From a virus, in IMG/VR virus record IMGVR_UViG_3300037502_001833, positions 1 through 30,841 of that record: DNA of 30,841 nucleotides; one strand, written 5' to 3'. Both the position numbers and the translations under genes were made by a program. The notes under the pieces are model-generated. The model was not told where the DNA came from and did no database searches. It saw only the letters and a program-made list of their open reading frames with translations. Shown piece after piece: positions 128 through 30,841 of the stretch (the first letter of the stretch is position 1; each line of letters opens with the position of its first letter).

Positions 128-400
128 ACTACACTGGGTAGTAGATATAGTCGTGAGCCAAAAACGGCACCGTTGGCACCGCCGCGATCGACCAACAATC
201 AGTCGATAGACTGGCTGATCGATGCGCCGGCGAGACCACAGCCACAGCGACGCGAATCGGAGCCCGAGGCCCGGGCACGACGGGCGGTTGAGCTGTCCAA
301 ATCGCTGTACGACGCAGAGGACGACGCGGAGCTCGAGCGCATCAACCAGTGGTACCGTGACCGCGAGACCAAACAAATGAACGCAGGAGAACAACAATGA
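2..400 (+). CDS. 3' part of a wrap-around replication-initiator-like wHTH protein. The 5' part is 30434..30841 and the joined product is ~226 aa.
   Basis: Position 2 is in frame with ATG 30434 once position 30715 is equated with position 1. The frame stays open to TGA 398-400. The track ORF 173..400 is its tail. The stop overlaps the next ATG (ATGA). Confidence 0.75.
   Translation, partial: SEPYQNRNPTVFGPETLPKTDLKGTQKRVAEPKEDPLVDHKRTTLGSRYSREPKTAPLAPPRSTNNQSIDWLIDAPARPQPQRRESEPEARARRAVELSKSLYDAEDDAELERINQWYRDRETKQMNAGEQQ
6..85 (+). repeat. Iteron-like direct repeats; same sequence as 30720..30799 in the terminal overlap.
   Basis: AACCCTACC-containing 17-18-bp units lie at 6-22, 23-39 and 45-62, with a GGTACCC variant at 68-85. 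Confidence 0.7.
101..160. promoter_or_regulatory. AT-richer block next to the iterons; possible DNA-unwinding element of the ori.
   Basis: This stretch is visibly lower in GC than its surroundings. It contains TAGTAGAT twice (111-118 and 139-146) and sits immediately 3' of the iteron array. Confidence 0.35.
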
Positions 401-2546: not shown

Positions 2547-2847
2547 CACGCGCCGGGCCGCGGCGTGGGCGGGCGGCATCGAGGTCGAGACATTCCATCA
2601 GTGGCTCCGTCGCTATCCTGCTTTTTCTGACGCCGTAAAACAAGCGGAGTCCGATGCCGAGCTGGCGATGGTCGAGAGGGTGCGTCTGGCGTCGGTCGAC
2701 ACATGGCAGGCCGCCGCATGGTGGCTCGAGCGCAAGCTCAAACAGGACTGGTCGGCACGGCAGGAGCAGACCGGCGCGGACGGCGGTGCGGTGCGCGTCA
2801 TCGTCCAATACGCGGACGAGCCGGCGCAACCAGACGCTGATGGCTGA
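2479..2847 (+). CDS. terS: Terminase small subunit (HTH type), 122 aa.
   Basis: The N-terminus MPRPTKYTPERVQRIVETLRGGNTRRAAAWAGGIEVETFHQWLRRYPAFSDAV is a typical small-terminase HTH. The gene lies directly upstream of terL and overlaps it. Confidence 0.8.
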   Translation: MPRPTKYTPERVQRIVETLRGGNTRRAAAWAGGIEVETFHQWLRRYPAFSDAVKQAESDAELAMVERVRLASVDTWQAAAWWLERKLKQDWSARQEQTGADGGAVRVIVQYADEPAQPDADG

Positions 2848-4012
2848 CATAACGCTCACGCTGCCCAGACCGCATCGGTCCCAGCGCATCATCCTGGACG
2901 AGGCGCGGCGTTGGAACGTTGTCGCCTGTGGCCGTCGTTTTGGCAAGACCACACTGGGCGGCAACCTGCTCGCCGATCCGGTACTGCGCGAGGGCAAATC
3001 CGTCGCATGGTTTGCGCCGACCTACCGGCTCCTCGAGGAGGCGTACAACGATCATCGCAGGATCTACCGGCCAGTGGTCACCCGGGCCGTGCAGACGCCG
3101 GCACCGCGCATCGAGCTCATCACCGGCGCCGCGATCGATTACTGGACGCTCGACGACCCGAGCACGGTCGCCCGCGGGCGCAAATACAAACGCGTCGTGA
3201 TCGACGAGGCGGCGATGGCCCGGCATTTGGAGGTCGCATGGACCGAGGCGATTCGGCCGACACTCACCGACTGGGCCGGCGATGCGTTTTTTCTGAGCAC
3301 GCCAAAGGGCGGCAACTATTTCAAGGCGCTCTGGGATATGGCCGAGGCCGGCGGCGACTGGGCCCGATGGCAGATGCCGACGTCGAGCAACCCGTACATA
3401 CCCGGGCTCGAGATCGAGGCGGCTCGCGAGTCCATGCCCAGCATCGCGTTTCGCCAGGAGTATCTCGCCGAGTTCGTCGACGCCGCCGGCGCCCGCATAA
3501 AACGCGAGTGGCTGCGCAACCGCGACGCACCAGACGGTCTGCCCGTCGTGCTGGGAGTCGACCTCGCGATCAGCACCAAGGCCGAAGCCGACTGGACGGC
3601 AATCGTCGCGCTGTCTCGCAGCGACGACGGCAACGTCTGGATCCGTGACGCCGCCCGCATCCGCGCACCATTCGACGGCGTCCTGCGGTTCGTCGAGCAG
3701 ATGGCCGACAAATGGTCGCCGGTGTCGATCGGCATCGAGCAGGTGCAGTATCAGGCGGCTGTCGTGCAGGAGCTCCTGCGTCGCACCAGATTGCCCGTAC
3801 GGGGCATCCGTCCCGACCGCGACAAAATCACCCGGTTCGGCCCGCTCGAGGCGCGATACGAGCAGGGTCTGGTCAATCACGCGACCGACCTGCCGGCATG
3901 GTACGTCGACGAGGTGCTGTCGTTCCCGGTCGGTCGCCACGACGACGCGGTCGACGCCACGGCGTACGCATGGTCGATGCTCGACAAACGCAGGAGTTTC
4001 AGCGCCGTATGA
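2840..4012 (+). CDS. terL: Terminase large subunit, 390 aa.
   Basis: Walker A is CGRRFGKTT and Walker B-like is RVVIDEAA. The C-terminal nuclease-domain acidic motifs are GVDLA and GRHDDAVDA. I chose ATG 2840 over the longer track ORF start 2654, which overlaps terS. Confidence 0.9.
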   Translation: MADITLTLPRPHRSQRIILDEARRWNVVACGRRFGKTTLGGNLLADPVLREGKSVAWFAPTYRLLEEAYNDHRRIYRPVVTRAVQTPAPRIELITGAAIDYWTLDDPSTVARGRKYKRVVIDEAAMARHLEVAWTEAIRPTLTDWAGDAFFLSTPKGGNYFKALWDMAEAGGDWARWQMPTSSNPYIPGLEIEAARESMPSIAFRQEYLAEFVDAAGARIKREWLRNRDAPDGLPVVLGVDLAISTKAEADWTAIVALSRSDDGNVWIRDAARIRAPFDGVLRFVEQMADKWSPVSIGIEQVQYQAAVVQELLRRTRLPVRGIRPDRDKITRFGPLEARYEQGLVNHATDLPAWYVDEVLSFPVGRHDDAVDATAYAWSMLDKRRSFSAV

Positions 4013-4299
4013 CAATCACCGACACACATCAGCGATGCCGGCGATGCAACGCCGGCCTGTACCGCGTCGACGACTGGGCCCGCGAAATGGATCGGACACC
4101 CGAGCAACGCCAATGGTTCTGCGACGGACACTGTCGACGCGCATGGTTCGCGGATCAGTGGGGTCTGGTCGTCGAGCTGGCGACAGACGAGCGCCCGATG
4201 TGCCCGACCTGCATTCGACCGATGGCACGATTTGGCAAACGCGACGGAGGTCGATGGCGATGCAATCAATGCCGCACGATACGTCGCGTCGCGGTATGA
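4009..4299 (+). CDS. Double Zn-ribbon protein, 96 aa.
   Basis: ATGA overlap with the terL stop. There are four Cys pairs: CRRC, CDGHC, CPTC and CNQC. Confidence 0.65.
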   Translation: MTITDTHQRCRRCNAGLYRVDDWAREMDRTPEQRQWFCDGHCRRAWFADQWGLVVELATDERPMCPTCIRPMARFGKRDGGRWRCNQCRTIRRVAV

Positions 4300-4319
4300 T
4301 GACACTGATTCTGTGACTC

Positions 4320-4351
4320 GACCCGGCAGGTCTGGCCGGGTCATTTTTTTT
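4320..4351 (+). terminator. Rho-independent terminator.
   Basis: An 8-bp GC-rich stem, GACCCGGC (4320-4327) with GCCGGGTC (4335-4342), has a 7-nt loop. After one A it is followed by a T8 run (4344-4351). Confidence 0.8.
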
Positions 4352-4378
4352 GCCCGACGGCGAACAAATCACTCGTGG

Positions 4379-4407
4379 TTGACGTCGCATCATCAGGGCG
4401 GTATAAC
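4379..4407 (+). promoter_or_regulatory. Near-consensus sigma70-type promoter.
   Basis: TTGACG (4379-4384), a 17-nt spacer and TATAAC (4402-4407). It lies in a 185-bp non-coding gap upstream of portal. Confidence 0.55.
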
Positions 4408-4413
4408 GCTCAG

Positions 4414-4466
4414 GATTGTTGTTCTCCTCAAGGCCCTGCGCCGACATTGAGTCGGCGCGGGGTTTT
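4414..4466 (+). ncRNA. Candidate ~50-nt small RNA, or a terminated leader of the structural operon.
   Basis: The predicted start is ~7 nt after the -10 element. A 5' block AUUGUUGUUCUCCU (4415-4428) is followed by an 11-bp hairpin (4434-4444 with 4452-4462, one G-U pair, 7-nt loop) and then UUUU (4463-4466). Confidence 0.3.
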
Positions 4467-4484
4467 GATTATTTGGAGGTCTGA

Positions 4485-6212
4485 TTGGGCATATTCGACG
4501 CAATCAACGCGGCCATCAAGGCGGCGGCTCGACGCAACGAGCCGTTGCCGCCACCGCTTGCGTCGAGGTCCAACACCGCCATCGGCACCGGGTCGGGACA
4601 GCTCGTATCGTTTCTCACCCGGCGTCTCCCAGGATCGCATCGCGACTGGGCACGCGAGGCCGGCGATCTCGGGCTCAACAGTGTCGTTGCCGTCGCGCTC
4701 GATTGGTACATCCGAAACTGGGCGCAGGGCGTCCCGCAGGTCATGCGGTACGTCGGCAACGGCCAGTCGGAGCTGGTGCCCGAGCATCCGGTGTACGACA
4801 TCCTGATGCAACCACAGCCGGGCGTCCCGCCGTCGGTGTTTTGGTCGTGGATCATCGCCGATTACAAACTGCTCGGCAACGCGTACATCCGCAAAATCCG
4901 CAGCAACAACATCGCCGGCGTCCCAACCAACCTGCAGTACCTGCCGGCCGATATGGTGCGACCCGTCGGCGATGGCAACCAGCCGGTCAAATACTGGGCC
5001 TACACAGCGGACGGTGCGACGTACAACATCGACCCGGCCGACCTGATCCACATCCGGTACAGCCGCGACCCGGTCGATATGCGTCTGGGCCGTTCGCCGG
5101 TCGCATCCGTCCTGCGCGAAATCGCGACCGACAACAGCGCATCGAGCACGGCGTACGGGCTGATGCGCAACAACGCGATGCCGTCGATGATCATCGGGCC
5201 CGATGCCCGCGACCAGATGGTCGACATCGACGAGGACTCGGCCCGCGCGCTCAAGCGCCGATTGCAGGAGAATTTCGCCGGCGACGGTGCGGGCGGCGTT
5301 GCCGTCATGCAGTCGGCGTACAAGGTCGATCGAGTCAGCCTGACGCCCAGCGAGCTCACACTCGACAGCGTCCGACGTCTGCCCGAGGAACGAATCTGCT
5401 CGGCATTGGGACTCAACCCGATGGTGCTCGGGCTCGGCAGTGGTCTCGACCGCTCGACATACTCGAACTACGAGCGGGCGCAACAGGCGGCATGGGAAGA
5501 TGGGATGATCCCGCTCATGGCGCAATTCGCGGAGGCGTTGACGATTGCGTTGCTCCCGGAGTTCCCGCAGACGGCCGACACAGACTACCTGCGATTCGAC
5601 GTCAGCGCCGTGCGGGCGCTCGCCGACGATCTGGCGGCAGAGGCCCAGCGGGCTGAGCGTCTGTACAAATCTGGCATCATCGATCGCGCAGAGGCGAAAC
5701 GCATCAGCGGTATCGAGCCCGCCGACGAGGACGAGGGCCAGATGTTCCCTGGTGCGGCCGCTCCTGCGATCGACGGCGAGCCGATTACTGCCGCGGTGCG
5801 ATCGATCGGCATCAAATCGATGCCGACCGAGGCGATGCAGACCGCCGCCCGTCGGGCGCTCGCCTGGAAACGCGACGGTCGCGCCGGCGGTACACGCGTC
5901 GGTCTGGCTCGCGCCAATCAGATTGCCAACGGTGGCGTCATCACCGAGGACACCATCCTGCGGATGTATTCGTTTTTCCGACGTCACGAGGTTGACCGCG
6001 AGGCCGAGGGATTCAACGCCGGCGAGCCCGGATACCCGAGTCCCGGTCGTGTGGCATGGGATTTGTGGGGCGGTGACGCCGGGTACGCATGGGCGACCAG
6101 ACTGCGCGACAAAATTCAGCGTGGCGAGTCGCTGGCGAAACAGCTTGATTGGGACGATGCGTCGGTGGAGGCCGGCGACGTCGACCCTTTTTGGATATTG
6201 ACAACCGAATAG
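4485..6212 (+). CDS. Portal protein (HK97-family type) with a ~130-aa C-terminal extension; 575 aa.
   Basis: TTG start with GGAGG at 4475-4479. Its size, its position after the terminase genes and its portal-like core support the call. The C-terminal block is GGTRVGLARANQIANG...FFRRHEVD...WDLWGGDAGYAWA. Confidence 0.85.
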   Translation: MGIFDAINAAIKAAARRNEPLPPPLASRSNTAIGTGSGQLVSFLTRRLPGSHRDWAREAGDLGLNSVVAVALDWYIRNWAQGVPQVMRYVGNGQSELVPEHPVYDILMQPQPGVPPSVFWSWIIADYKLLGNAYIRKIRSNNIAGVPTNLQYLPADMVRPVGDGNQPVKYWAYTADGATYNIDPADLIHIRYSRDPVDMRLGRSPVASVLREIATDNSASSTAYGLMRNNAMPSMIIGPDARDQMVDIDEDSARALKRRLQENFAGDGAGGVAVMQSAYKVDRVSLTPSELTLDSVRRLPEERICSALGLNPMVLGLGSGLDRSTYSNYERAQQAAWEDGMIPLMAQFAEALTIALLPEFPQTADTDYLRFDVSAVRALADDLAAEAQRAERLYKSGIIDRAEAKRISGIEPADEDEGQMFPGAAAPAIDGEPITAAVRSIGIKSMPTEAMQTAARRALAWKRDGRAGGTRVGLARANQIANGGVITEDTILRMYSFFRRHEVDREAEGFNAGEPGYPSPGRVAWDLWGGDAGYAWATRLRDKIQRGESLAKQLDWDDASVEAGDVDPFWILTTE

Positions 6213-25676: not shown

Positions 25677-26084
25677 TCAGCGCCGGGCGTCAGCATCCCA
25701 GCGCATCTGCTCGATTTGATCGCGCATCAACAGCAGGGCATCGGTCGCATCCTGATCGAAACGGCCCTCCATACGCGTTCGGTCGTTGTTGAGATCCTCC
25801 GACCAGCCGGCGCGGATGATGGCGATGTCGTCGGCGAAATCGTTGACCATTTCGCGGATGTAGGCGTTGCTCATGTTGTGCGACAAAACGAACGTCGATT
25901 CGTAACCGTACCAAGCGCGGGCAGCGATGTCGAACGCACAGGCTCGAGGTCGGGTGTGCACGTCGATGACGCCGGTCTGCCAATCGATGCGCAGGATGAG
26001 CATCTCGTTGCGGCGATTGCGGGCGATTTCGGCGCGGAGACCGTGCTCGATGGCGACGGTCGGGATGTTGATGGTTGCAGTCAT
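25677..26084 (-). CDS. Hypothetical protein, 135 aa; the only minus-strand gene.
   Basis: GGAGAACAACAATGAC is the initiation region on the minus strand. The gene ends at the bidirectional terminator. I recognised no HTH or other motif. Confidence 0.7.
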   Translation of the reverse strand: MTATINIPTVAIEHGLRAEIARNRRNEMLILRIDWQTGVIDVHTRPRACAFDIAARAWYGYESTFVLSHNMSNAYIREMVNDFADDIAIIRAGWSEDLNNDRTRMEGRFDQDATDALLLMRDQIEQMRWDADARR

Positions 26085-26116
26085 TGTTGTTCTCCGTGTC
26101 AGTGGGCTGACGTCAA

Positions 26117-26130
26117 TAGTGTACCAGAAA
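26117..26130 (-). promoter_or_regulatory. Putative leftward promoter/operator; a 14-mer shared with 29039..29052.
   Basis: The minus strand reads TTTCTGGTACACTA, i.e. an extended -10-like TGGTACACT. TTGCGA lies 16 nt upstream of TACACT as a possible -35. Confidence 0.4.
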
Positions 26131-26172
26131 ATGTAGCACTCGCAATAGATTCTGGTATGTCTCGCCTAAATA

Positions 26173-26184
26173 TTTGGTACAATA
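26173..26184 (+). promoter_or_regulatory. Putative rightward early promoter (extended -10).
   Basis: TTTGGTACAATA contains TGGTACAAT, which matches TGnTAnAAT. It is a variant of the 14-mer found at 26117 (minus strand) and 29039. Confidence 0.4.
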
Positions 26185-26210: not shown

Positions 26211-26239
26211 ACGGCCCGGGCGATGGGTACCCGGGCCGT
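26211..26239. other. Perfect 10-bp inverted repeat / hairpin in the early leader.
   Basis: ACGGCCCGGG (26211-26220) pairs with CCCGGGCCGT (26230-26239) around a 9-nt loop. On the minus strand it is followed by TTTGCGTTTGC. Confidence 0.6.
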
Positions 26240-26264
26240 GCCGACCAGGAGATTAGCAATCGGC

Positions 26265-26408
26265 ATGGACATTATACGCAAACGACGCCGGCTCGAGATC
26301 GTCGGCAACATCCTGCTGTGCGTGTTGCTGGCGATCGGCGCGATCGCATACGGCGTCGATCTGGGCAACCGCACCGAGCAACGTCTGGCTGCGCGGTCTG
26401 CCCGATGA
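26265..26408 (+). CDS. Small single-pass membrane peptide, 47 aa.
   Basis: AGGAGA lies at 26247-26252. The product is MDIIRKRRRLEIVGNILLCVLLAIGAIAYGV.... Its stop overlaps the next ATG (ATGA). It is shorter than most ORFs listed in the supplied track and appears there only as the tail of the longer ORF 25716..26408. Confidence 0.5.
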   Translation: MDIIRKRRRLEIVGNILLCVLLAIGAIAYGVDLGNRTEQRLAARSAR

Positions 26409-26926
26409 GGTCGCGCACGTTGGATGCAGTGGTATCGGATCTCGAGGCCCGCGAACAGCAGGGCCTGATCACATACGGGTGCACGGTCGACCGGGTCGAC
26501 CTCGCCCGCACAGACTGGGTGCGCCATGCGTACCATGAGGCGCTCGACCTGGCGATGTACCTGCGCCGGGTCCAGATGGAGGACAACAACGATGTGGCTG
26601 ATGATGCCAATGACGGTGGCGGCGCTGTGGATCGTGCTCACGGCGCTGGCGATGTGCCGGCTCGCGGCACTGTCCGATCGCAGGTGACGATCGATTACCC
26701 GGCTGGCCTGTTGACGGCCGGCGCGGCCGCCGCGGTGTATCTCGCGATGCGCACGTTGACGCAGGACGGCGACACTGTCACCGTATCGGGCCGGCAGATC
26801 GCGACGATGGTCGATATGTCGCCCGTCACTGTCGAGCGCCAGATCGGCGTGCTGGTCAAGCGCGGGTACGTCGAACGCATCGAGGGCGAGCATCGCAACA
26901 GCAGATCGACGTACCGCATCCGGTGA
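26405..26926 (+). CDS. Winged-HTH DNA-binding protein, 173 aa as one ORF; candidate early regulator.
   Basis: The C-terminal 80 aa (AAVYLAMRTL...VSGRQIATMVDMSPVTVERQIGVLVKRGYVERI) look like a MarR/GntR-type wHTH. The N-terminal 60 aa are helical. An Asp/Gly-rich linker with lower GC3 joins them. Confidence 0.65.
   Translation: MRSRTLDAVVSDLEAREQQGLITYGCTVDRVDLARTDWVRHAYHEALDLAMYLRRVQMEDNNDVADDANDGGGAVDRAHGAGDVPARGTVRSQVTIDYPAGLLTAGAAAAVYLAMRTLTQDGDTVTVSGRQIATMVDMSPVTVERQIGVLVKRGYVERIEGEHRNSRSTYRIR
26592..26687 (+). CDS. Candidate overlapping 31-codon hydrophobic peptide in an alternate frame.
   Basis: GGAGG (26578-26582) lies 9 nt before ATG 26592. The product is MWLMMPMTVAALWIVLTALAMCRLAALSDRR. 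By my count GC3 is 28 of 31 codons here against 21 of 37 in the annotated frame. Its TGA overlaps an in-frame GTG (26684) at the start of the wHTH domain. Confidence 0.3.
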   Translation: MWLMMPMTVAALWIVLTALAMCRLAALSDRR

Positions 26927-27150
26927 GTCGACCCAGCGCTCGCGAGCTTTACGACCGGTACCGGCGGTGCGCATCGCCGCCGGGCTGGACGCAGGACGAC
27001 GAGCGCCAATTCCGAGCCTATTGGCTGGATCGAATCAAACAGGAGAACAACAATGACACAGACACAATATCCAATCACGGTGACACCGCGGGGGTACGAC
27101 GACCCGACGTACGAGGTCGACCGCATCCTGGACAACGTCACGGTCGGTGA
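26923..27150 (+). CDS. Small hypothetical protein, 75 aa; its 3' tail reads through the next gene start.
   Basis: GTGA overlap with the upstream stop. GC3 is high up to ~27050 and then drops where the ORF overlaps CDS 27053. Confidence 0.45.
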   Translation: MSRPSARELYDRYRRCASPPGWTQDDERQFRAYWLDRIKQENNNDTDTISNHGDTAGVRRPDVRGRPHPGQRHGR

Positions 27151-27301
27151 CATCGCACGATTGCCAGACGGCACAGCGGACCGCGCCATGCGGGCCTACC
27201 TGCGCATCATCGCCAACATTCACGCGCCGACGGCACAGGCCGACGCCCGGTACATCGAGCTGGCGTTGATGCGTCATGGGATCTGGGCGGTGACGAAATG
27301 A
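27053..27301 (+). CDS. Hypothetical protein, 82 aa.
   Basis: The ATG is preceded by the conserved block CAGGAGAACAACA. GC3 is high. Confidence 0.65.
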   Translation: MTQTQYPITVTPRGYDDPTYEVDRILDNVTVGDIARLPDGTADRAMRAYLRIIANIHAPTAQADARYIELALMRHGIWAVTK

Positions 27302-27828
27302 GATGGCACGACGTCAAACTGGTGGCGCAGTGGTACCGGATGTCGATCCGACGACGGTCGTGGGAGCAGGGAGTGGCATACAAACACGACAAATGGGAAT
27401 CCCGATACAGCGATCGTCACTCGCCCGAGTACGGCCATGCGTCCAACGACTGGATCAACCTGACGATGACGATGGCGATCTGCGAGCGCCGCATGGCCGA
27501 GGGCAAAACCAACATCGACGACAGACGCGATTACGCAATCTGCGATGCGACCGACTGGTGTCTGGCCGATTACGACACAAGGGCTGAGCTCGAGCATCTG
27601 CCGTACGGCGCGGCAAAAATCCTGGCGGTGCGCGGATTAACGGTGCGCAGGGCATCGTGGCCGTCGCACTGGCGCATGATCCACCGGCAAAAACGCGGCG
27701 ATCTCGACGACGGCGCGGCGATCTGCGACAGCAGGACCGGTCAGCTGATGATCATGCCTCGCACAGACCGCGTCGTGATGGTCGACGGGCGCGACATCGA
27801 GGTCAAGGACTGGATGGTCGTCGAATGA
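27298..27828 (+). CDS. Two-domain protein, 176 aa, with a DUF2829-like C-terminal domain.
   Basis: ATGA overlap with the upstream stop. The C-terminal ~75 aa start YGAAKILAVRGLTVRRASWP and end DIEVKDWMVVE, which matches the begin and end signatures I recall for DUF2829. Confidence 0.55.
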   Translation: MRWHDVKLVAQWYRMSIRRRSWEQGVAYKHDKWESRYSDRHSPEYGHASNDWINLTMTMAICERRMAEGKTNIDDRRDYAICDATDWCLADYDTRAELEHLPYGAAKILAVRGLTVRRASWPSHWRMIHRQKRGDLDDGAAICDSRTGQLMIMPRTDRVVMVDGRDIEVKDWMVVE

Positions 27829-28046
27829 CAGGTCTGCGTGGTGCTGATGCGTTTCGCGCACTGGTCGCCGGCAGGCGCATCAGGCGGGCTGTATGGCCCG
27901 CCGGGTGCACATGGGCGGCAAACCTCGAGGACCGCGAGTGCTCGCCGGTCATCACGGGCCCGCCGGCATGGGTGCGGCGTTGCCACGACGATCATCGCTG
28001 GTGCGGTCACCAGTGGCGCGGCAACGACTGGGAGGTGCTGGACTAA
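27825..28046 (+). CDS. DUF2829-like small protein, 73 aa.
   Basis: ATGA overlap with the upstream stop. It starts ADAFRALVAGRRIRRAVWP and ends WRGNDWEVLD. Confidence 0.55.
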   Translation: MTGLRGADAFRALVAGRRIRRAVWPAGCTWAANLEDRECSPVITGPPAWVRRCHDDHRWCGHQWRGNDWEVLD

Positions 28047-28633
28047 TGGGTCGCAATCCGATGGATTTGACGTCGCGCAGATGCAAGATCTGTGGCGACA
28101 TCTGCCCGATCGAGCAGTTCTGCCGCCCGAGCAAAAAATACCAATCTGGGTTTGTGCTCGAGACCAAATGCCGAGCCTGTTACCGCCAATACCAGCGGAC
28201 GCGCAAACAGATGCAATACGCCGACCCGGCAAAACGGCAGGTCATCCTGGACCGGGCTCGCAAATACAGGGCATTGCGGATGCCCGACCAGACCGACGCC
28301 AAACGCAACGATTTGTGCAGCTCGATCGCATGGGTGACAAACCGATGCGAAACAATCCTCGCCGGTGGCAAACCCGGTTCGGTCATCGTGTACCTGATCG
28401 AGGGCCGTGGCGCTCTGGTACCGCATGATCGCGATGCGGAGCGCCCGTGGCGTGGCAAATCATGGGCAATACGCGAGCATCGTCCCGGCATCGTCCCGCC
28501 ACGTGGCGGTATCCCGCTAATGCGCATCGTCGGCATCAGCGCATTCCCGCATTCGTTGTGTCCAGACGGGTGGCGCTGGGTCGCCAAATACACCGGCAAC
28601 TGGTTGCGCCGCCGGTACCAGGAGAACGATTGA
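28046..28633 (+). CDS. Zn-ribbon protein, 195 aa.
   Basis: TAATG overlap with the upstream stop. The N-terminal motif CKICGDICPIEQF...GFVLETKCRACY is common at the N-terminus of phage DNA-binding and HNH-associated proteins. I saw no HNH catalytic motif. Confidence 0.6.
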   Translation: MGRNPMDLTSRRCKICGDICPIEQFCRPSKKYQSGFVLETKCRACYRQYQRTRKQMQYADPAKRQVILDRARKYRALRMPDQTDAKRNDLCSSIAWVTNRCETILAGGKPGSVIVYLIEGRGALVPHDRDAERPWRGKSWAIREHRPGIVPPRGGIPLMRIVGISAFPHSLCPDGWRWVAKYTGNWLRRRYQEND

Positions 28634-29025
28634 TGCCAACGAAACCGCCGCTCGAATCCACCATACAGACCAGCATCGTCAACATCCTGACCATGCTGGG
28701 ATACACCGTCATCGAGATCGGCAGGACGCGCAGGATGGTCCCGTGCAAACGCTGCGGAGCATCGACGCCGGCGATCGGCTGGCAGGGCAACACGCCGGGC
28801 GCACCGGACCTGATGGTGACCAGCACGCGCTGGTCGGGAGATTGGGTCGGCATCGAGGTCAAACGGCCGGGCGGTGCGATCCGTCCTGAGCAACAACGTC
28901 TGGTCGACGCCGGCACGGTCGTCATCGTGCGATCGTTGCGCGATGCACTCGGCGTCGTTGTCCAGGCGGAGGCCCGGCATGGTCACCAGAGCGCCCAGAT
29001 CGACGCGGTGATCCAACAATTGTGA
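28633..29025 (+). CDS. VRR-NUC domain nuclease, 130 aa.
   Basis: TGATG overlap with the upstream stop. The motif GAPDLMV...WVGIEVKRPGGAIRPEQQRLVDAG fits VRR-NUC (PD...E-x-K). Confidence 0.75.
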   Translation: MPTKPPLESTIQTSIVNILTMLGYTVIEIGRTRRMVPCKRCGASTPAIGWQGNTPGAPDLMVTSTRWSGDWVGIEVKRPGGAIRPEQQRLVDAGTVVIVRSLRDALGVVVQAEARHGHQSAQIDAVIQQL

Positions 29026-29038
29026 CACCGTGCACCAG

Positions 29039-29052
29039 TTTCTGGTACACTA
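29039..29052 (+). promoter_or_regulatory. Putative promoter/operator upstream of the RecT-like gene.
   Basis: TTTCTGGTACACTA is identical to the minus-strand 14-mer at 26117-26130. It is embedded in the palindrome ACCAGTTTCTGGT (29034-29046). Confidence 0.45.
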
Positions 29053-29087
29053 CACCGTGCTCAATCGAGCACACAGGAGATACAGCA

Positions 29088-30017
29088 ATGACAGATTTGG
29101 TTGTGGCGGCACCCGTGTCGGTGCCCGACGTCATGACGATGGCCGACGTCATCGTCAAATCCGGTTTGTTCCCGGCGTTCAAAAATCGCGAGAGCGCCGC
29201 CGCGATGATGCTCCTCTGCCGTGCAAAAGGCCTCGACCCGATGACCGCGGTCGAGCGCTACCACATTGTCCAGGGCCGGCCGGTGATGCGGGCCGACGCC
29301 ATGCTCGGCGAGTTCATCCGCATGGGCGGGCGAGTTGAGTGGCACCGGCGCGACGACACCGAGGCATCGGCAACATTTAGCCATCCGCAGGGCGGCTCGG
29401 TCACCGTTAGCTGGACGATCGAGATGGCACGCAAGGCGAAACTCACCGGCAAGGACATCTGGTCGCAATACCCGCGCCAGATGCTTCACGCGCGTTGTGT
29501 TTCCGAGGGCGTCCGATCTGTGTTGCCCGGCGCGACCAACGGCCTGTACACGCCCGAGGAGGCGATGAACATGGAGCCGGTGGCAGATTCTCCCGCGCCG
29601 GCGTCCAAACCCGCTGTACGGGCAATCTCGCGCGATCCCGAGCCTGTTGCCGCGTTGCCGTCGCCCGAGCCCGTCGTGGTCGATGCCGTCGTCGTCGATC
29701 CGAAAAAACTGCTCACGCTGGCGATGCAGGATTTCGCCGATGCCGCGACCGAGCGCGGCTGGGAGATCGCCGGCGCCAACGGCAAACCCAGCAAATCCAA
29801 AATGGTCGCGCTGGCCGGCAAACTGGTGACCGGGTTTGACGCCGCCGATCCCGAGCATTGGGCGCTCGCGCAGGACGCTCTGGTCGAGACCGGCGACACC
29901 GATCCGGTACCTGCGCCGGCCGACGACAACGGGCTGGTGCTCGAGGCCGAGGTCGTGACAGCCGACGCCGACACCAGCGGCACGTTCACAATCGCGGACC
30001 CGTTCGCCGACGATTGA
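29088..30017 (+). CDS. recT: RecT/Red-beta-family single-strand annealing protein, 309 aa.
   Basis: AGGAGA lies at 29075-29080. The motifs LLCRAKGLDPMTAVERYHIVQGRP...WSQYPRQMLHARCVSEGVRSVLPGATNGLYTPEE fit the family. The C-terminal tail is acidic. Confidence 0.7.
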   Translation: MTDLVVAAPVSVPDVMTMADVIVKSGLFPAFKNRESAAAMMLLCRAKGLDPMTAVERYHIVQGRPVMRADAMLGEFIRMGGRVEWHRRDDTEASATFSHPQGGSVTVSWTIEMARKAKLTGKDIWSQYPRQMLHARCVSEGVRSVLPGATNGLYTPEEAMNMEPVADSPAPASKPAVRAISRDPEPVAALPSPEPVVVDAVVVDPKKLLTLAMQDFADAATERGWEIAGANGKPSKSKMVALAGKLVTGFDAADPEHWALAQDALVETGDTDPVPAPADDNGLVLEAEVVTADADTSGTFTIADPFADD

Positions 30018-30098
30018 CACAAAATGGGCGGTGGAATTAACCTTTCGCCATCGCCCAGAAGCCGGCGCGTAAGCTGTAGGGCCGCACCGGCGCAACGG

Positions 30099-30135
30099 CC
30101 GGCCCGGTACGAGACAGCCGGGCCGGTTTTGATTT
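30099..30135 (+). terminator. Rho-independent terminator.
   Basis: A 9-bp GC stem, CCGGCCCGG (30099-30107) with CCGGGCCGG (30118-30126), is followed by TTTTGATTT. Confidence 0.75.
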
Positions 30136-30175
30136 CAACCAGTCGGAATTTCCGACACATTGCGAGGCAACAACA

Positions 30176-30355
30176 ATGACCGAGGCAGAACGACAACGGA
30201 TGCTGGATTGGCTGCTCAACGAGCGCGCGCGCATCGAGGGCCAGATCGCCGAGATCGATCAGCGCATCGACCATCTGCGCGGTCTGCGCCATCCTGCGAC
30301 ATCGACCAGTCCGACCAGGACACCGGACACGACGACCGCGTACCGGGTAAAATAG
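30176..30355 (+). CDS. Small coiled-coil protein, 59 aa.
   Basis: The ATG is preceded by GAGGCAACAACA. The product is MTEAERQRMLDWLLNERARIEGQIAEIDQRIDHLRGL.... It is absent from the supplied track, presumably because of its small size. Confidence 0.55.
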   Translation: MTEAERQRMLDWLLNERARIEGQIAEIDQRIDHLRGLRHPATSTSPTRTPDTTTAYRVK

Positions 30356-30433
30356 ACTGCTCATCGGATACCGCCACAGCGCGGGCCCGCCGGCTGATCC
30401 CCGGCGGGTACATCCCATGAGCGGAGGCACACG

Positions 30434-30841
30434 ATGAGCATCAACGCCCTCAACTGGGCCGGCCGTACCGTCACAGGTTCGGCATCACGCAAGGCCGTTT
30501 TGTTGTGTCTGGCGAACTATGCCAACGAACAAAACGAGGCGTATCCGTCCGTCGAGACCATCGCCAGGATCACCGAGCTCAACGCCAAAACGGTGCGTCT
30601 GGCGCTCACCGAAATGGAGTCCAACGGGCTCATATTCGACACAGGTCGACGTCGCGGACAGACCCAGAACATTCGGGTCTGGGGTCTGAATCTGGACGCC
30701 GAAACCCTACCAAAATCGGAACCCTACCAAAATCGGAACCCTACCGTTTTTGGACCTGAAACCCTACCAAAAACGGACCTGAAAGGTACCCAAAAACGGG
30801 TAGCAGAACCTAAAGAGGATCCGTTAGTAGATCACAAGAGA
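30434..30841 (+). CDS. 5' part of the replication-initiator-like wHTH protein; continues at 2..400 across the circular junction.
   Basis: GGAGG at 30423-30427 precedes ATG 30434. The N-terminus is NWAGRTVTGSASRKAVLLCLANYANEQNEAYPSVETIARITELNAKTVRLALTEMESNGLI, the pattern of HTH_36/DnaD-like phage and plasmid replication proteins. The frame stays open to the window end. Confidence 0.75.
   Translation, partial: MSINALNWAGRTVTGSASRKAVLLCLANYANEQNEAYPSVETIARITELNAKTVRLALTEMESNGLIFDTGRRRGQTQNIRVWGLNLDAETLPKSEPYQNRNPTVFGPETLPKTDLKGTQKRVAEPKEDPLVDHKR
30703..30799 (+). repeat. Iteron array (five units) inside the initiator gene.
   Basis: AACCCTACCAAAATCGG occurs twice in perfect tandem (30703-30719 and 30720-30736). 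AACCCTACCGTTTTTGG follows at 30737-30753. Two 23-bp units follow: ACCTGAAACCCTACCAAAAACGG (30754-30776) and ACCTGAAAGGTACCCAAAAACGG (30777-30799). Confidence 0.75.
30715..30841. repeat. Terminal overlap copy 2, identical to 1..127.
   Basis: Read directly from the sequence. Confidence 0.95.

Follow-up and report, generated by a model that had tools for sequence, protein, structure and literature searches.

A Portal Leader Complementary to Early-Gene Initiation Regions: A Candidate Trans-Acting Antisense RNA in an Uncultured Freshwater Phage

Results

Complementarity of the Portal Leader to Early-Gene Starts

We analyzed the leader in front of the portal gene in a 30,841-nt viral DNA (IMG/VR record IMGVR_UViG_3300037502_001833, positions 1 to 30,841; the whole stretch is referred to as the window). 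This DNA is the complete ~31-kb genome (GC ~62%) of a small, uncultured, lytic-type freshwater phage known solely from metagenomes. The 5′ segment of the leader, called the seed below, is antisense to the initiation regions of three early genes, from the Shine-Dalgarno sequence (SD) through the spacer to the first two bases of the start codon. The explanation that we prefer is that a short leader transcript, or the 5′ end of the structural mRNA, would pair in trans with these initiation regions and block their translation; judged from sequence comparison and folding, we rate this explanation as a roughly even call.

The 14-nt block AGGAGAACAACAAT was found as an exact match at 385-398 (+) and 27041-27054 (+) and with 13/14 identity at 26083-26096 (−), and its reverse complement has one copy in the window, at 4415-4428. 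When up to two mismatches were allowed, 5 matches were detected against 0.12 expected, and 0/100 shuffles reached 5. The match is real and not a chance event; a preliminary description of this DNA had judged chance unlikely. That description had given complementary lengths of 14, 14, and 13 nt at coding sequences (CDSs) 397, 27053, and the lone minus-strand CDS and of 9 nt at CDS 30176, and all four were reproduced, the last as AACAACAAT at 30169-30177. Across the genome (30.8 kb, both strands), the reversed leader has its three longest matches at these three gene-start copies; the next is 10 nt, and nothing longer than 10 nt matches the leader downstream in the structural operon. The target blocks belong to transcription units other than that of the leader, two on the plus strand (385 and 27041) and one on the minus strand (26083), 4-9 kb away from it by circular distance. 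The flanks of the block copies do not align, so the repeat is sharply bounded. Recent recombination of the leader with a gene-start region was considered as its origin and rejected for lack of flanking homology.

The Leader Unit

The features of the leader unit and of the early-gene initiation regions are listed in Table 1. The coordinates previously assigned to the promoter, seed, hairpin arms, and UUUU all agree with the sequence, and the unit does lie directly behind the terminator of the terS-terL-Zn-ribbon unit, which was called in our scan. With this strong terminator just upstream, the promoter-like site at 4379-4407 would drive the portal/structural operon (portal, Mu-F-like, scaffold/protease, major capsid, and onward). 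The putative start site at ~4414 is 7 nt past the −10 hexamer, and the complementary stretch fills the predicted single-stranded segment between start site and hairpin. The mean unpaired probability of the seed was 0.93 in the short form of the transcript, and that of the target blocks was 0.57-0.93 in their mRNAs. ViennaRNA lengthened the 11-bp arms noted earlier (4434-4444 with 4452-4462) to 16 bp, with a hairpin energy of −29.7 kcal/mol compared to −15.4 for shuffles (z = −4.6), and the scan called 4428-4468 terminator-like. The hairpin ends ~20 nt before the portal gene, and its sequence (GGCCnnGCGCCGA...) is conserved in the relatives. An Rfam search of 4200-4700 gave no match at the gathering score (best 13-23 bits against thresholds of 39-162).

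In the proposed mechanism, a leader transcript of the structural operon would start near 4414, its first ~16 nt being single-stranded and followed by the strong hairpin with a short U run. It would either be released as an attenuated transcript of ~53 nt or be kept as the 5′ end of the long structural mRNA, and the seed may act in one of these forms or in both. The seed would pair with a cassette, cAGGAGA-N4-6-CAAUGAC, at genes 397, 27053, and 26084 (−), with gene 30176 as a weak fourth target, and would cover the SD, the spacer, and the first two bases of AUG. Such pairing in trans would block 30S binding and possibly trigger decay, and translation of the targets would fall as the structural promoter fires. 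We infer that the RNA would be made late, pair in vivo with its targets, and repress them, i.e., the shut-off of early genes that the preliminary description had put forward.

A separate observation concerns the −35 element. The sequence TTGACGTC, which contains the palindrome TGACGTCA, occurs at seven sites in the window (4379, 12507, 13218, 20728−, 26109−, 27310−, and 28067) against 2.0 expected, and 0/100 shuffles reached 7. The leader promoter has one of these copies as its −35, and a second copy separates the −10 of minus-strand gene 26084 from its SD.

Table 1. Positions of the leader unit, the target blocks, and the cassette variants in the window
Feature	Position	Strand	Description
Intrinsic terminator closing the terS-terL-Zn-ribbon unit	4320..4351 (4320-4342 plus T8)	+	8-bp GC stem; scan call; present at the same place in all relatives
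Promoter-like site of the portal/structural operon	4379..4407	+	TTGACG 4379-4384, 17-nt spacer, TATAAC 4402-4407; true intergenic gap
5′ seed of the leader RNA, predicted single-stranded	4414..4429	+	4415-4428 = ATTGTTGTTCTCCT (RNA AUUGUUGUUCUCCU); antisense to the early-gene initiation block; hypervariable in relatives
GC-rich 16-bp hairpin, putative attenuator or terminator of the leader	4430..4466	+	4430-4445 with 4451-4466; UUUU 4463-4466
Portal SD GGAGG and TTG start	4475-4479; 4485-4487	+	Both invariant in the clade
Target block, SD to AU(G), of CDS 397-1122 (241 aa)	385..398	+	14/14 complementary; unpaired 0.93
Target block, SD to AU(G), of CDS 27053-27301 (82 aa)	27041..27054	+	14/14 complementary; unpaired 0.76
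Target block, SD to AU(G), of the lone minus-strand CDS 25677-26084 (135-aa ORFan)	26083..26095	−	13 nt complementary; downstream of promoter-like TTCTGGTACACTA (26117-26129)
Weak partial target, spacer and AU of CDS 30176-30355	30169..30177	+	9-nt match AACAACAAT, no SD match; predicted duplex −15.3 kcal/mol
Cassette variant GGAGATACAGCAAT at the RecT-like gene	29076..29089	+	6 nt match to the window seed
Cassette variant GGAGATTAGCAAT before the small open reading frame preceding the winged-helix gene	26248..26260	+	Downstream of promoter-like ATTTGGTACAATA (26172-26184)

Leader Versions in the Close Clade

Relatives were recovered with portal and gp397 (product of CDS 397) homologues, and the close clade was defined by a portal identity of at least 70% (14 relative contigs); our claims are limited to this clade. 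Its members are L169 (31.6 kb, portal 95%), L145 (portal 96%), L081, L082, L001, L170-L172, L002, L177 (a 26-kb contig), L178, and L004/L084, and the early region of L001 is represented by L083 (94-nt identical overlap). The upstream terminator, the −35 TTGACGTCG, a TAnnnT −10 hexamer (TATCAT, TACACT, TAGACT, or TAGAGT in the relatives), the hairpin, the SD GGAGG, and the TTG start are kept in all clade members. The least conserved part is the ~18 nt between the −10 and the hairpin, which comes in four very different versions (Table 2). L145 and L169 have flanks nearly identical to those of the window, yet carry version B.

Table 2. Versions of the leader segment and their longest exact complements at gene starts (nt)
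Version	Genomes	Segment	Own genome	Best elsewhere
A	Window only	GAUUGUUGUUCUCCUCAA	14, 14, 13	7 (L169), 10 (L177)
B	L169, L145, L081, L082	GUUGUCAUUGCGGUCUCUG	10, 9, 8	9 (window), 7 (L177)
C/C2	L001, L170-L172 / L002, L177, L178	GUGUUAG(A/U)GUUUCUCCUCAU	11, 11, 10 (C2)	7 (window), 9 (L169) (C2)
D	L004	Longer, with two CUCCUC tracts

None of the relatives has a minus-strand gene start at the leader spot, the case in which the preliminary description would have taken the block for a relic initiation region; read in reverse, the block runs into the −10, the −35, and the upstream terminator. These comparisons bear on the view that the leader copy is a non-functional inverted member of a repeat family, either a relic initiation region or the product of short-patch recombination among initiation cassettes, that lies in the portal leader by coincidence. 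The cassette is indeed a repeat family in this genome, a RecT-like annealase gene is present, and the −10 hexamer is broken in the window version, as might be expected of a replacement that is recent and still incompletely adapted. However, the leader copy and the gene-start copies share no flanking homology, and a minus-strand gene would not fit there. A relic would also be expected to decay; instead, in relatives whose portals are 81-96% identical, the segment is replaced by other anti-start versions, with the promoter and hairpin kept in place. We therefore consider this view very unlikely.

A pattern scan of IMG/VR for the promoter plus hairpin returned the known relatives and two chance matches in coding sequence (L086 and L087). 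Relatives at ~60% identity carry the order GGTAYAAT ... ACUCCUC ... hairpin before portal and were tried as carriers of the same unit. This assignment was rejected: in the methylase-linked L005 and L010 the −10-like motif holds the stop codon of the upstream gene, and in the others the upstream open reading frame (ORF) appears to run through the motif, so that the stretch is a 3′ untranslated region (UTR) plus terminator. The leaders of this group showed no extended complementarity to gene starts and were left out of the clade. In the ~60% group (L005-L080 and L089-L168) the terminator is followed by a conserved TGTGGGATA(C/A)T (TGTGGGATACT or CGTGGGATAAT) ending 6-8 nt before the portal ATG, a motif that we infer would serve as the extended −10 of a leaderless portal mRNA. 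L175 has no leader: behind its terminator, TTGACC-17-GATAAT directly adjoins the portal start. Both arrangements support the view that portal opens a transcription unit. The close clade differs from these outer relatives in its ~70-nt leader with seed, hairpin, and SD.

Seed Versions and the Gene Starts of Their Own Genomes

Three genomes contain both the leader and the full early region (the window, L169, and L177). In these, the longest exact seed complement was determined in the −25 to +10 regions of all called gene starts (Table 2). Shuffling of the seeds gave p = 0/2000 (A), 0.002 (B), and 0/2000 (C2) for the sum of the top three matches. When the eight 3′ bases (the anti-SD end) were fixed and the rest was shuffled, the p values were 0.002, 0.0095, and 0.037 for A, B, and C2, respectively. 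In a sense-strand control, the seeds reached at most 5-7 nt. The duplex-energy matrix across the versions was roughly block-diagonal only.

Seed versions and gene starts co-vary. The orthologous gp397 start reads AGGAGA-ACAA-CAATGACA in the window vs. AGGAGA-GACC-CAATGACA in L082, and this 4-nt spacer difference is mirrored in the seeds, UUGU in the window vs. GGUC in L082. The L082 seed would pair with its gp397 start as AGAGACC^CAAUGACA, i.e., 7+8 bp with one bulged base. The best targets recur across versions: the minus-strand gene, the gp27053 family, the gp397 family, and RecT. The preliminary description had raised the question of whether relatives co-conserve seed and target block; the own-genome best match is clear for versions A and C2 and modest for version B.

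Folding of the Leader and the Portal SD

In the read-through form of the transcript, the minimum free energy (MFE) structure extends the hairpin by CUCC:GGAG pairing, and the portal SD is 0.04-0.06 unpaired. Masking of the portal SD in cis by CUCC, also suggested in the preliminary description, is possible in these folding models. The whole leader could then be explained in cis alone, as a portal 5′ UTR in which CUCC pairs with the SD GGAGG and the hairpin attenuates or stabilizes the mRNA, the early-gene match having no function in trans. Besides the predicted pairing, the SD and the bases beside the hairpin (T..CTC) are invariant in the clade, the strong upstream terminator means that the promoter must drive portal, and in L175 the promoter-like site abuts the portal start without a leader. 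Three results make the explanation in cis improbable in our view. First, the predicted occlusion of the SD is about the same when the seed is shuffled or deleted, the SD remaining largely paired; the fraction of shuffles at or below the observed SD value was 0.13, 0.98, 0.10, 0.28, and 0.63 in five versions. Second, the 4-5 anti-SD bases leave 9-10 further exact complementary bases at three genes unexplained. Third, the own-genome specificity survives when the anti-SD end is fixed, and version B is without CUCC.

The Initiation Cassette and the Early Promoters

Two classes of gene starts are found in the window: structural genes have GGAGG with GC-rich spacers, and a set of non-structural genes has cAGGAGA-N4-6-CAATGAC. 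Six copies of the pattern GGAGA-N3-7-CAAT are present in the window, where 0.69 would be expected; early gene starts account for five of them (386, 26083−, 26248, 27042, and 29076), and the sixth is the reversed copy in the leader. The cassette is confined to non-structural gene starts and follows the orientation of the gene, the minus-strand gene included. The site orthologous to 29076 is a perfect 14-nt target of seed A in L082, and the type B seed has its best match (10 nt) there. A 46-aa homologue of the small ORF behind the copy at 26248 was called in L169.

The early promoters look unlike the leader promoter. An exact 13-mer, TTCTGGTACACTA (extended −10 type, TGGTACACT), is present at 26117-26129 (−) before gene 26084 and at 29040-29052 (+) before the RecT-like gene. 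The similar ATTTGGTACAATA at 26172-26184 (+) faces the small ORF and the winged-helix gene, and the TTCTGGTACACTA and ATTTGGTACAATA copies together suggest a divergent early promoter region.

The same blocks could alternatively be double-stranded DNA sites for a phage regulator, e.g., the winged-helix protein (26318-26926); the leader copy at +1 to +14 would then be an operator, and the blocks would co-vary with the specificity of the protein. Such sites would be comparable to the asymmetric stoperators of Cluster A mycobacteriophages. Four near-identical copies in one genome, one of them at a predicted promoter start site, fit this alternative. The winged-helix protein is 64% identical between the window and L169, compared to 95% for the portal, and a change of specificity is possible; protein binding was also considered for analogous start-associated sequences (Pope et al., 2011; PMC3203893). 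However, the SD, the spacer, and AU(G) themselves make up the block, its placement relative to promoters varies, and two copies have no promoter-like site nearby. Within version B genomes no exact 12-mer is shared by the blocks, and the matches require bulges and a variable spacing (4-6 nt), which suit RNA pairing but usually not a sequence-specific protein. The restriction of the cassette to gene starts and its tracking of gene orientation, also at the minus-strand gene, argue for a role at the RNA level. We concluded that a DNA site is a rather unlikely explanation.

Several other features were noted in the early region. The RecT 5′ UTR contains a small hairpin, GTGCTC-AATC-GAGCAC. The 5′ UTR of the rightward early transcript contains an 11-bp GC hairpin at 26211-26239 (ACGGCCCGGG...CCCGGGCCGT). 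Read on the minus strand, this hairpin precedes TTTGCGTTTG and received a terminator-like call, although there is no minus-strand gene upstream of it. The minus-strand slot next to the divergent promoters holds differently sized proteins with no similarity detected among them (25677-26084 (−) in the window, 3-194 (−) in L169, and 3964-4356 (−) and 4452-4631 (−) in L177), and the start of whichever gene fills the slot is among the better matches to the seed of its own genome.

Genome Organization and Relatives

Homologues of the genes 27298 to 30505 run straight into the homologue of 397 in L082 and L169. The gene order in both is 27298 - 27893 - 28447 - RecT - 30176 - 30505 - 397 - ... - terS - terL - Zn ribbon - leader - portal, and this continuity indicates that the two ends of the window join (circular or circularly permuted). 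The portal CDS (4485-6212) matched Pfam Phage_portal with E = 9e-55. The non-structural genes at 25.6-30.8 kb and 0.4-2.5 kb encode a winged-helix protein, a RecT-like annealase, nucleases, and many proteins of unknown function. The gp397 family is restricted to this phage clade (16 homologous clusters found), and the 135-aa minus-strand protein had 2 homologous clusters in 5.8 billion proteins.

A nucleotide search of 50,697 cultured phage records gave no match, and matches of the portal protein were below 35% identity; the phage is thus without an annotated relative. No portal relative was found in a scan of 185,579 bacterial and archaeal genomes, which provides neither a host assignment nor a prophage context. 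Integrase and repressor families had no match among the ORFs scanned, with many structural and tail ORFs lying outside the scan.

The longest terL ORF (2654-4012) overlaps the terS-like ORF (2479-2847) by ~190 nt. The gene calls of L169 begin terL ~150 nt further in, and the true terL start in the window is therefore probably near 2810. In one relative (contig of P0006, portal 82% identical), an HNH endonuclease gene on the opposite strand, at 3403-4026 (−), separates the small-terminase region from a shortened terL and has the look of an inserted homing endonuclease.

Discussion

Pairing of the Leader RNA in Trans: Evidence For and Against

The antisense small RNA (sRNA) proposed in the preliminary description is favored by the complementarity, by the hypervariability of the seed between conserved flanks, and by the own-genome match in three genomes. 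A number of results weigh against it. Version A is known from a single contig. The −10 of the window (TATAAC) ends in C and is without the highly conserved T at −7 that all relatives have, so the promoter was not called in the consensus scan; it is less close to consensus than first described and, in the window, may be weak. The U run after the hairpin is 4 in versions A and B, 4-5 in C, 2 in C2, and 3 in D. Such a short and variable tract makes the hairpin likely a partial terminator at best. The ~50-nt sRNA architecture is supported as to the conserved promoter, the predicted single-stranded 5′ seed, and the conserved hairpin with its U run; a discrete short RNA is not assured, and the seed may act mainly at the 5′ end of the portal mRNA. 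The complementarity is also uneven among relatives: the version B seed has modest matches (10 nt, or 7+8 with a bulge) and fits the window gene starts nearly as well, version D has a single 10-nt match outside the matrix, and L082, with its perfect type A target at RecT, has a type B seed.

Duplex energy by itself did not discriminate. The 14-bp seed duplex is A/U-rich (−21.4 kcal/mol) and does not stand out from GC-rich coding sequence; in a genome-wide RNAduplex scan, in which coding segments rich in GC scored higher than the 14-mer with the help of G-U pairs, the site at 385 ranked 7th. Exact-match statistics were therefore used instead. Finally, searches of Pfam, PHROGs, and NCBIfam gave no match for the function of the target proteins, and neither did a Protein Data Bank (PDB) sequence search with gp397 and gp26084.

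Comparison With Known Systems

The promoter-like site at 4379-4407 and the hairpin at 4430-4466, directly before the portal and head genes, resemble a lambdoid late promoter with a close terminator. In the lambdoid PR′-tR′ unit (lambda 6S RNA) and in StxS, a promoter likewise precedes the late genes and a terminator hairpin follows within ~50-200 nt. The StxS transcript of Stx phages, a short PR′-tR′ leader, was shown to regulate by base pairing, with a phage transcript among its targets (Sy et al., 2020; PMC7547250). Here, the RNA would act on a number of early-gene initiation regions of the phage itself, united by a common cassette, rather than on a host mRNA or a single gene downstream, and the U tract is weak. 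The lambda-type antitermination logic offered as a second interpretation in the preliminary description found no support: no annotated family of Q-type antiterminators matched among the early ORFs scanned (Pfam, PHROGs, and NCBIfam), several small early ORFs being outside the scan. By eye, no TAnnnT-like hexamer was seen in 4408-4430. Antitermination in trans, by pairing of an early mRNA into the hairpin arm, was also considered and rejected, the sequences upstream of the target blocks not being complementary to the 5′ arm.

The leader-cassette pairing is a variant of the known phage antisense RNAs, which are known mostly as one RNA with one target in immunity circuits. The CI RNA of phage P4 acts in trans by pairing around a ribosome-binding site. 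The c4 RNA of P1 and P7 also pairs in trans around the ribosome-binding site, and its short specificity segments differ between the relatives, resulting in P1/P7 heteroimmunity (PMC12197685). Both c4 and CI arise by processing of the leader in the operon that they control and serve lysogenic immunity. In contrast, the RNA described here would have its own promoter before the structural operon, its targets are dispersed on both strands, and no integrase was detected in the scanned ORFs; the c4/CI arrangement of operon-leader processing with targets downstream on the same transcript is not the one found in the window. The sar RNA of P22 covers the ribosome-binding site of ant. Like sar, which limits antirepressor synthesis, lambda OOP is a small phage RNA that lowers the expression of the phage mRNA it pairs with, in its case cII mRNA (PMC12197685). 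These two RNAs are transcribed from the opposite strand of a single target and are fully complementary to it, whereas here a 13-14-nt seed is common to several targets and is encoded 4-9 kb away from them.

There is a likeness in behavior, which is not membership, to the start-associated sequence (SAS) of Cluster K mycobacteriophages. The SAS is an asymmetric repeat containing AGGAG, located a few bases before the ATG of non-structural genes only, with one reversed copy that is not at a gene start (Pope et al., 2011; PMC3203893). It is found mostly on genes that follow sizeable intergenic gaps, and the choice between an RNA and a protein as its binder was left open (PMC3203893). In phage Anaya, we verified 16 copies in forward and 1 in reversed orientation. 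The window cassette is also of the AGGAG type before the ATG of non-structural genes, again mostly behind sizeable gaps, with five forward copies and one reversed, and both repeats are oriented with their genes. It differs from the SAS in copy number (5 vs. 11-19), and the sequences, phage groups, and hosts are unrelated. The SAS consensus GGGATAGGAGCCC (13 bp) had no match in the window with up to two mismatches, and the 5 matches at three mismatches compare to 7.5 expected.

The reversed SAS of Anaya (L176, JF704106), GGGATAGGAGGCC with 12/13 identity, is located at 44871-44883 (−) (59870-59882 of the record), ~190 nt ahead of gp97 in the non-coding gap of 385 nt that separates gp96 from gp97. 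It lies behind a terminator-like hairpin and overlaps TTGACC-17-TATCCC. No clear promoter-hairpin unit was recognised around it, and no expression data for it were found in the literature.

Implications

If pairing in trans does not occur, a repeated initiation cassette with one inverted copy still needs explanation. If it does, one short RNA tied to the structural promoter would act on a set of early genes marked by a common cassette, and RNA and cassette would change together between phages that are 81-96% identical in portal. A wider proposal, to which we assign a low chance of being right, is that seed and cassette may constitute a fast-evolving, RNA-coded specificity pair, in which one RNA of the structural operon would silence an early regulon and may free the portal SD. 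Mutually non-cognate versions might then act as a barrier or weapon between co-infecting relatives, the match of the window seed to the RecT start of L082 being an example of a cross-match, and the same arrangement might account for the Cluster K SAS and its reversed copy. That copy was unexplained in the 2011 description (later literature was outside our survey), and pairing in trans here would supply a testable hypothesis for it, a transcript across the reversed copy. The seed and target versions would also provide naturally orthogonal pairs for testing and reuse. For the phage itself, the switch from early to late translation would then rest on RNA alone, a simple mechanism for a small lytic-type phage.

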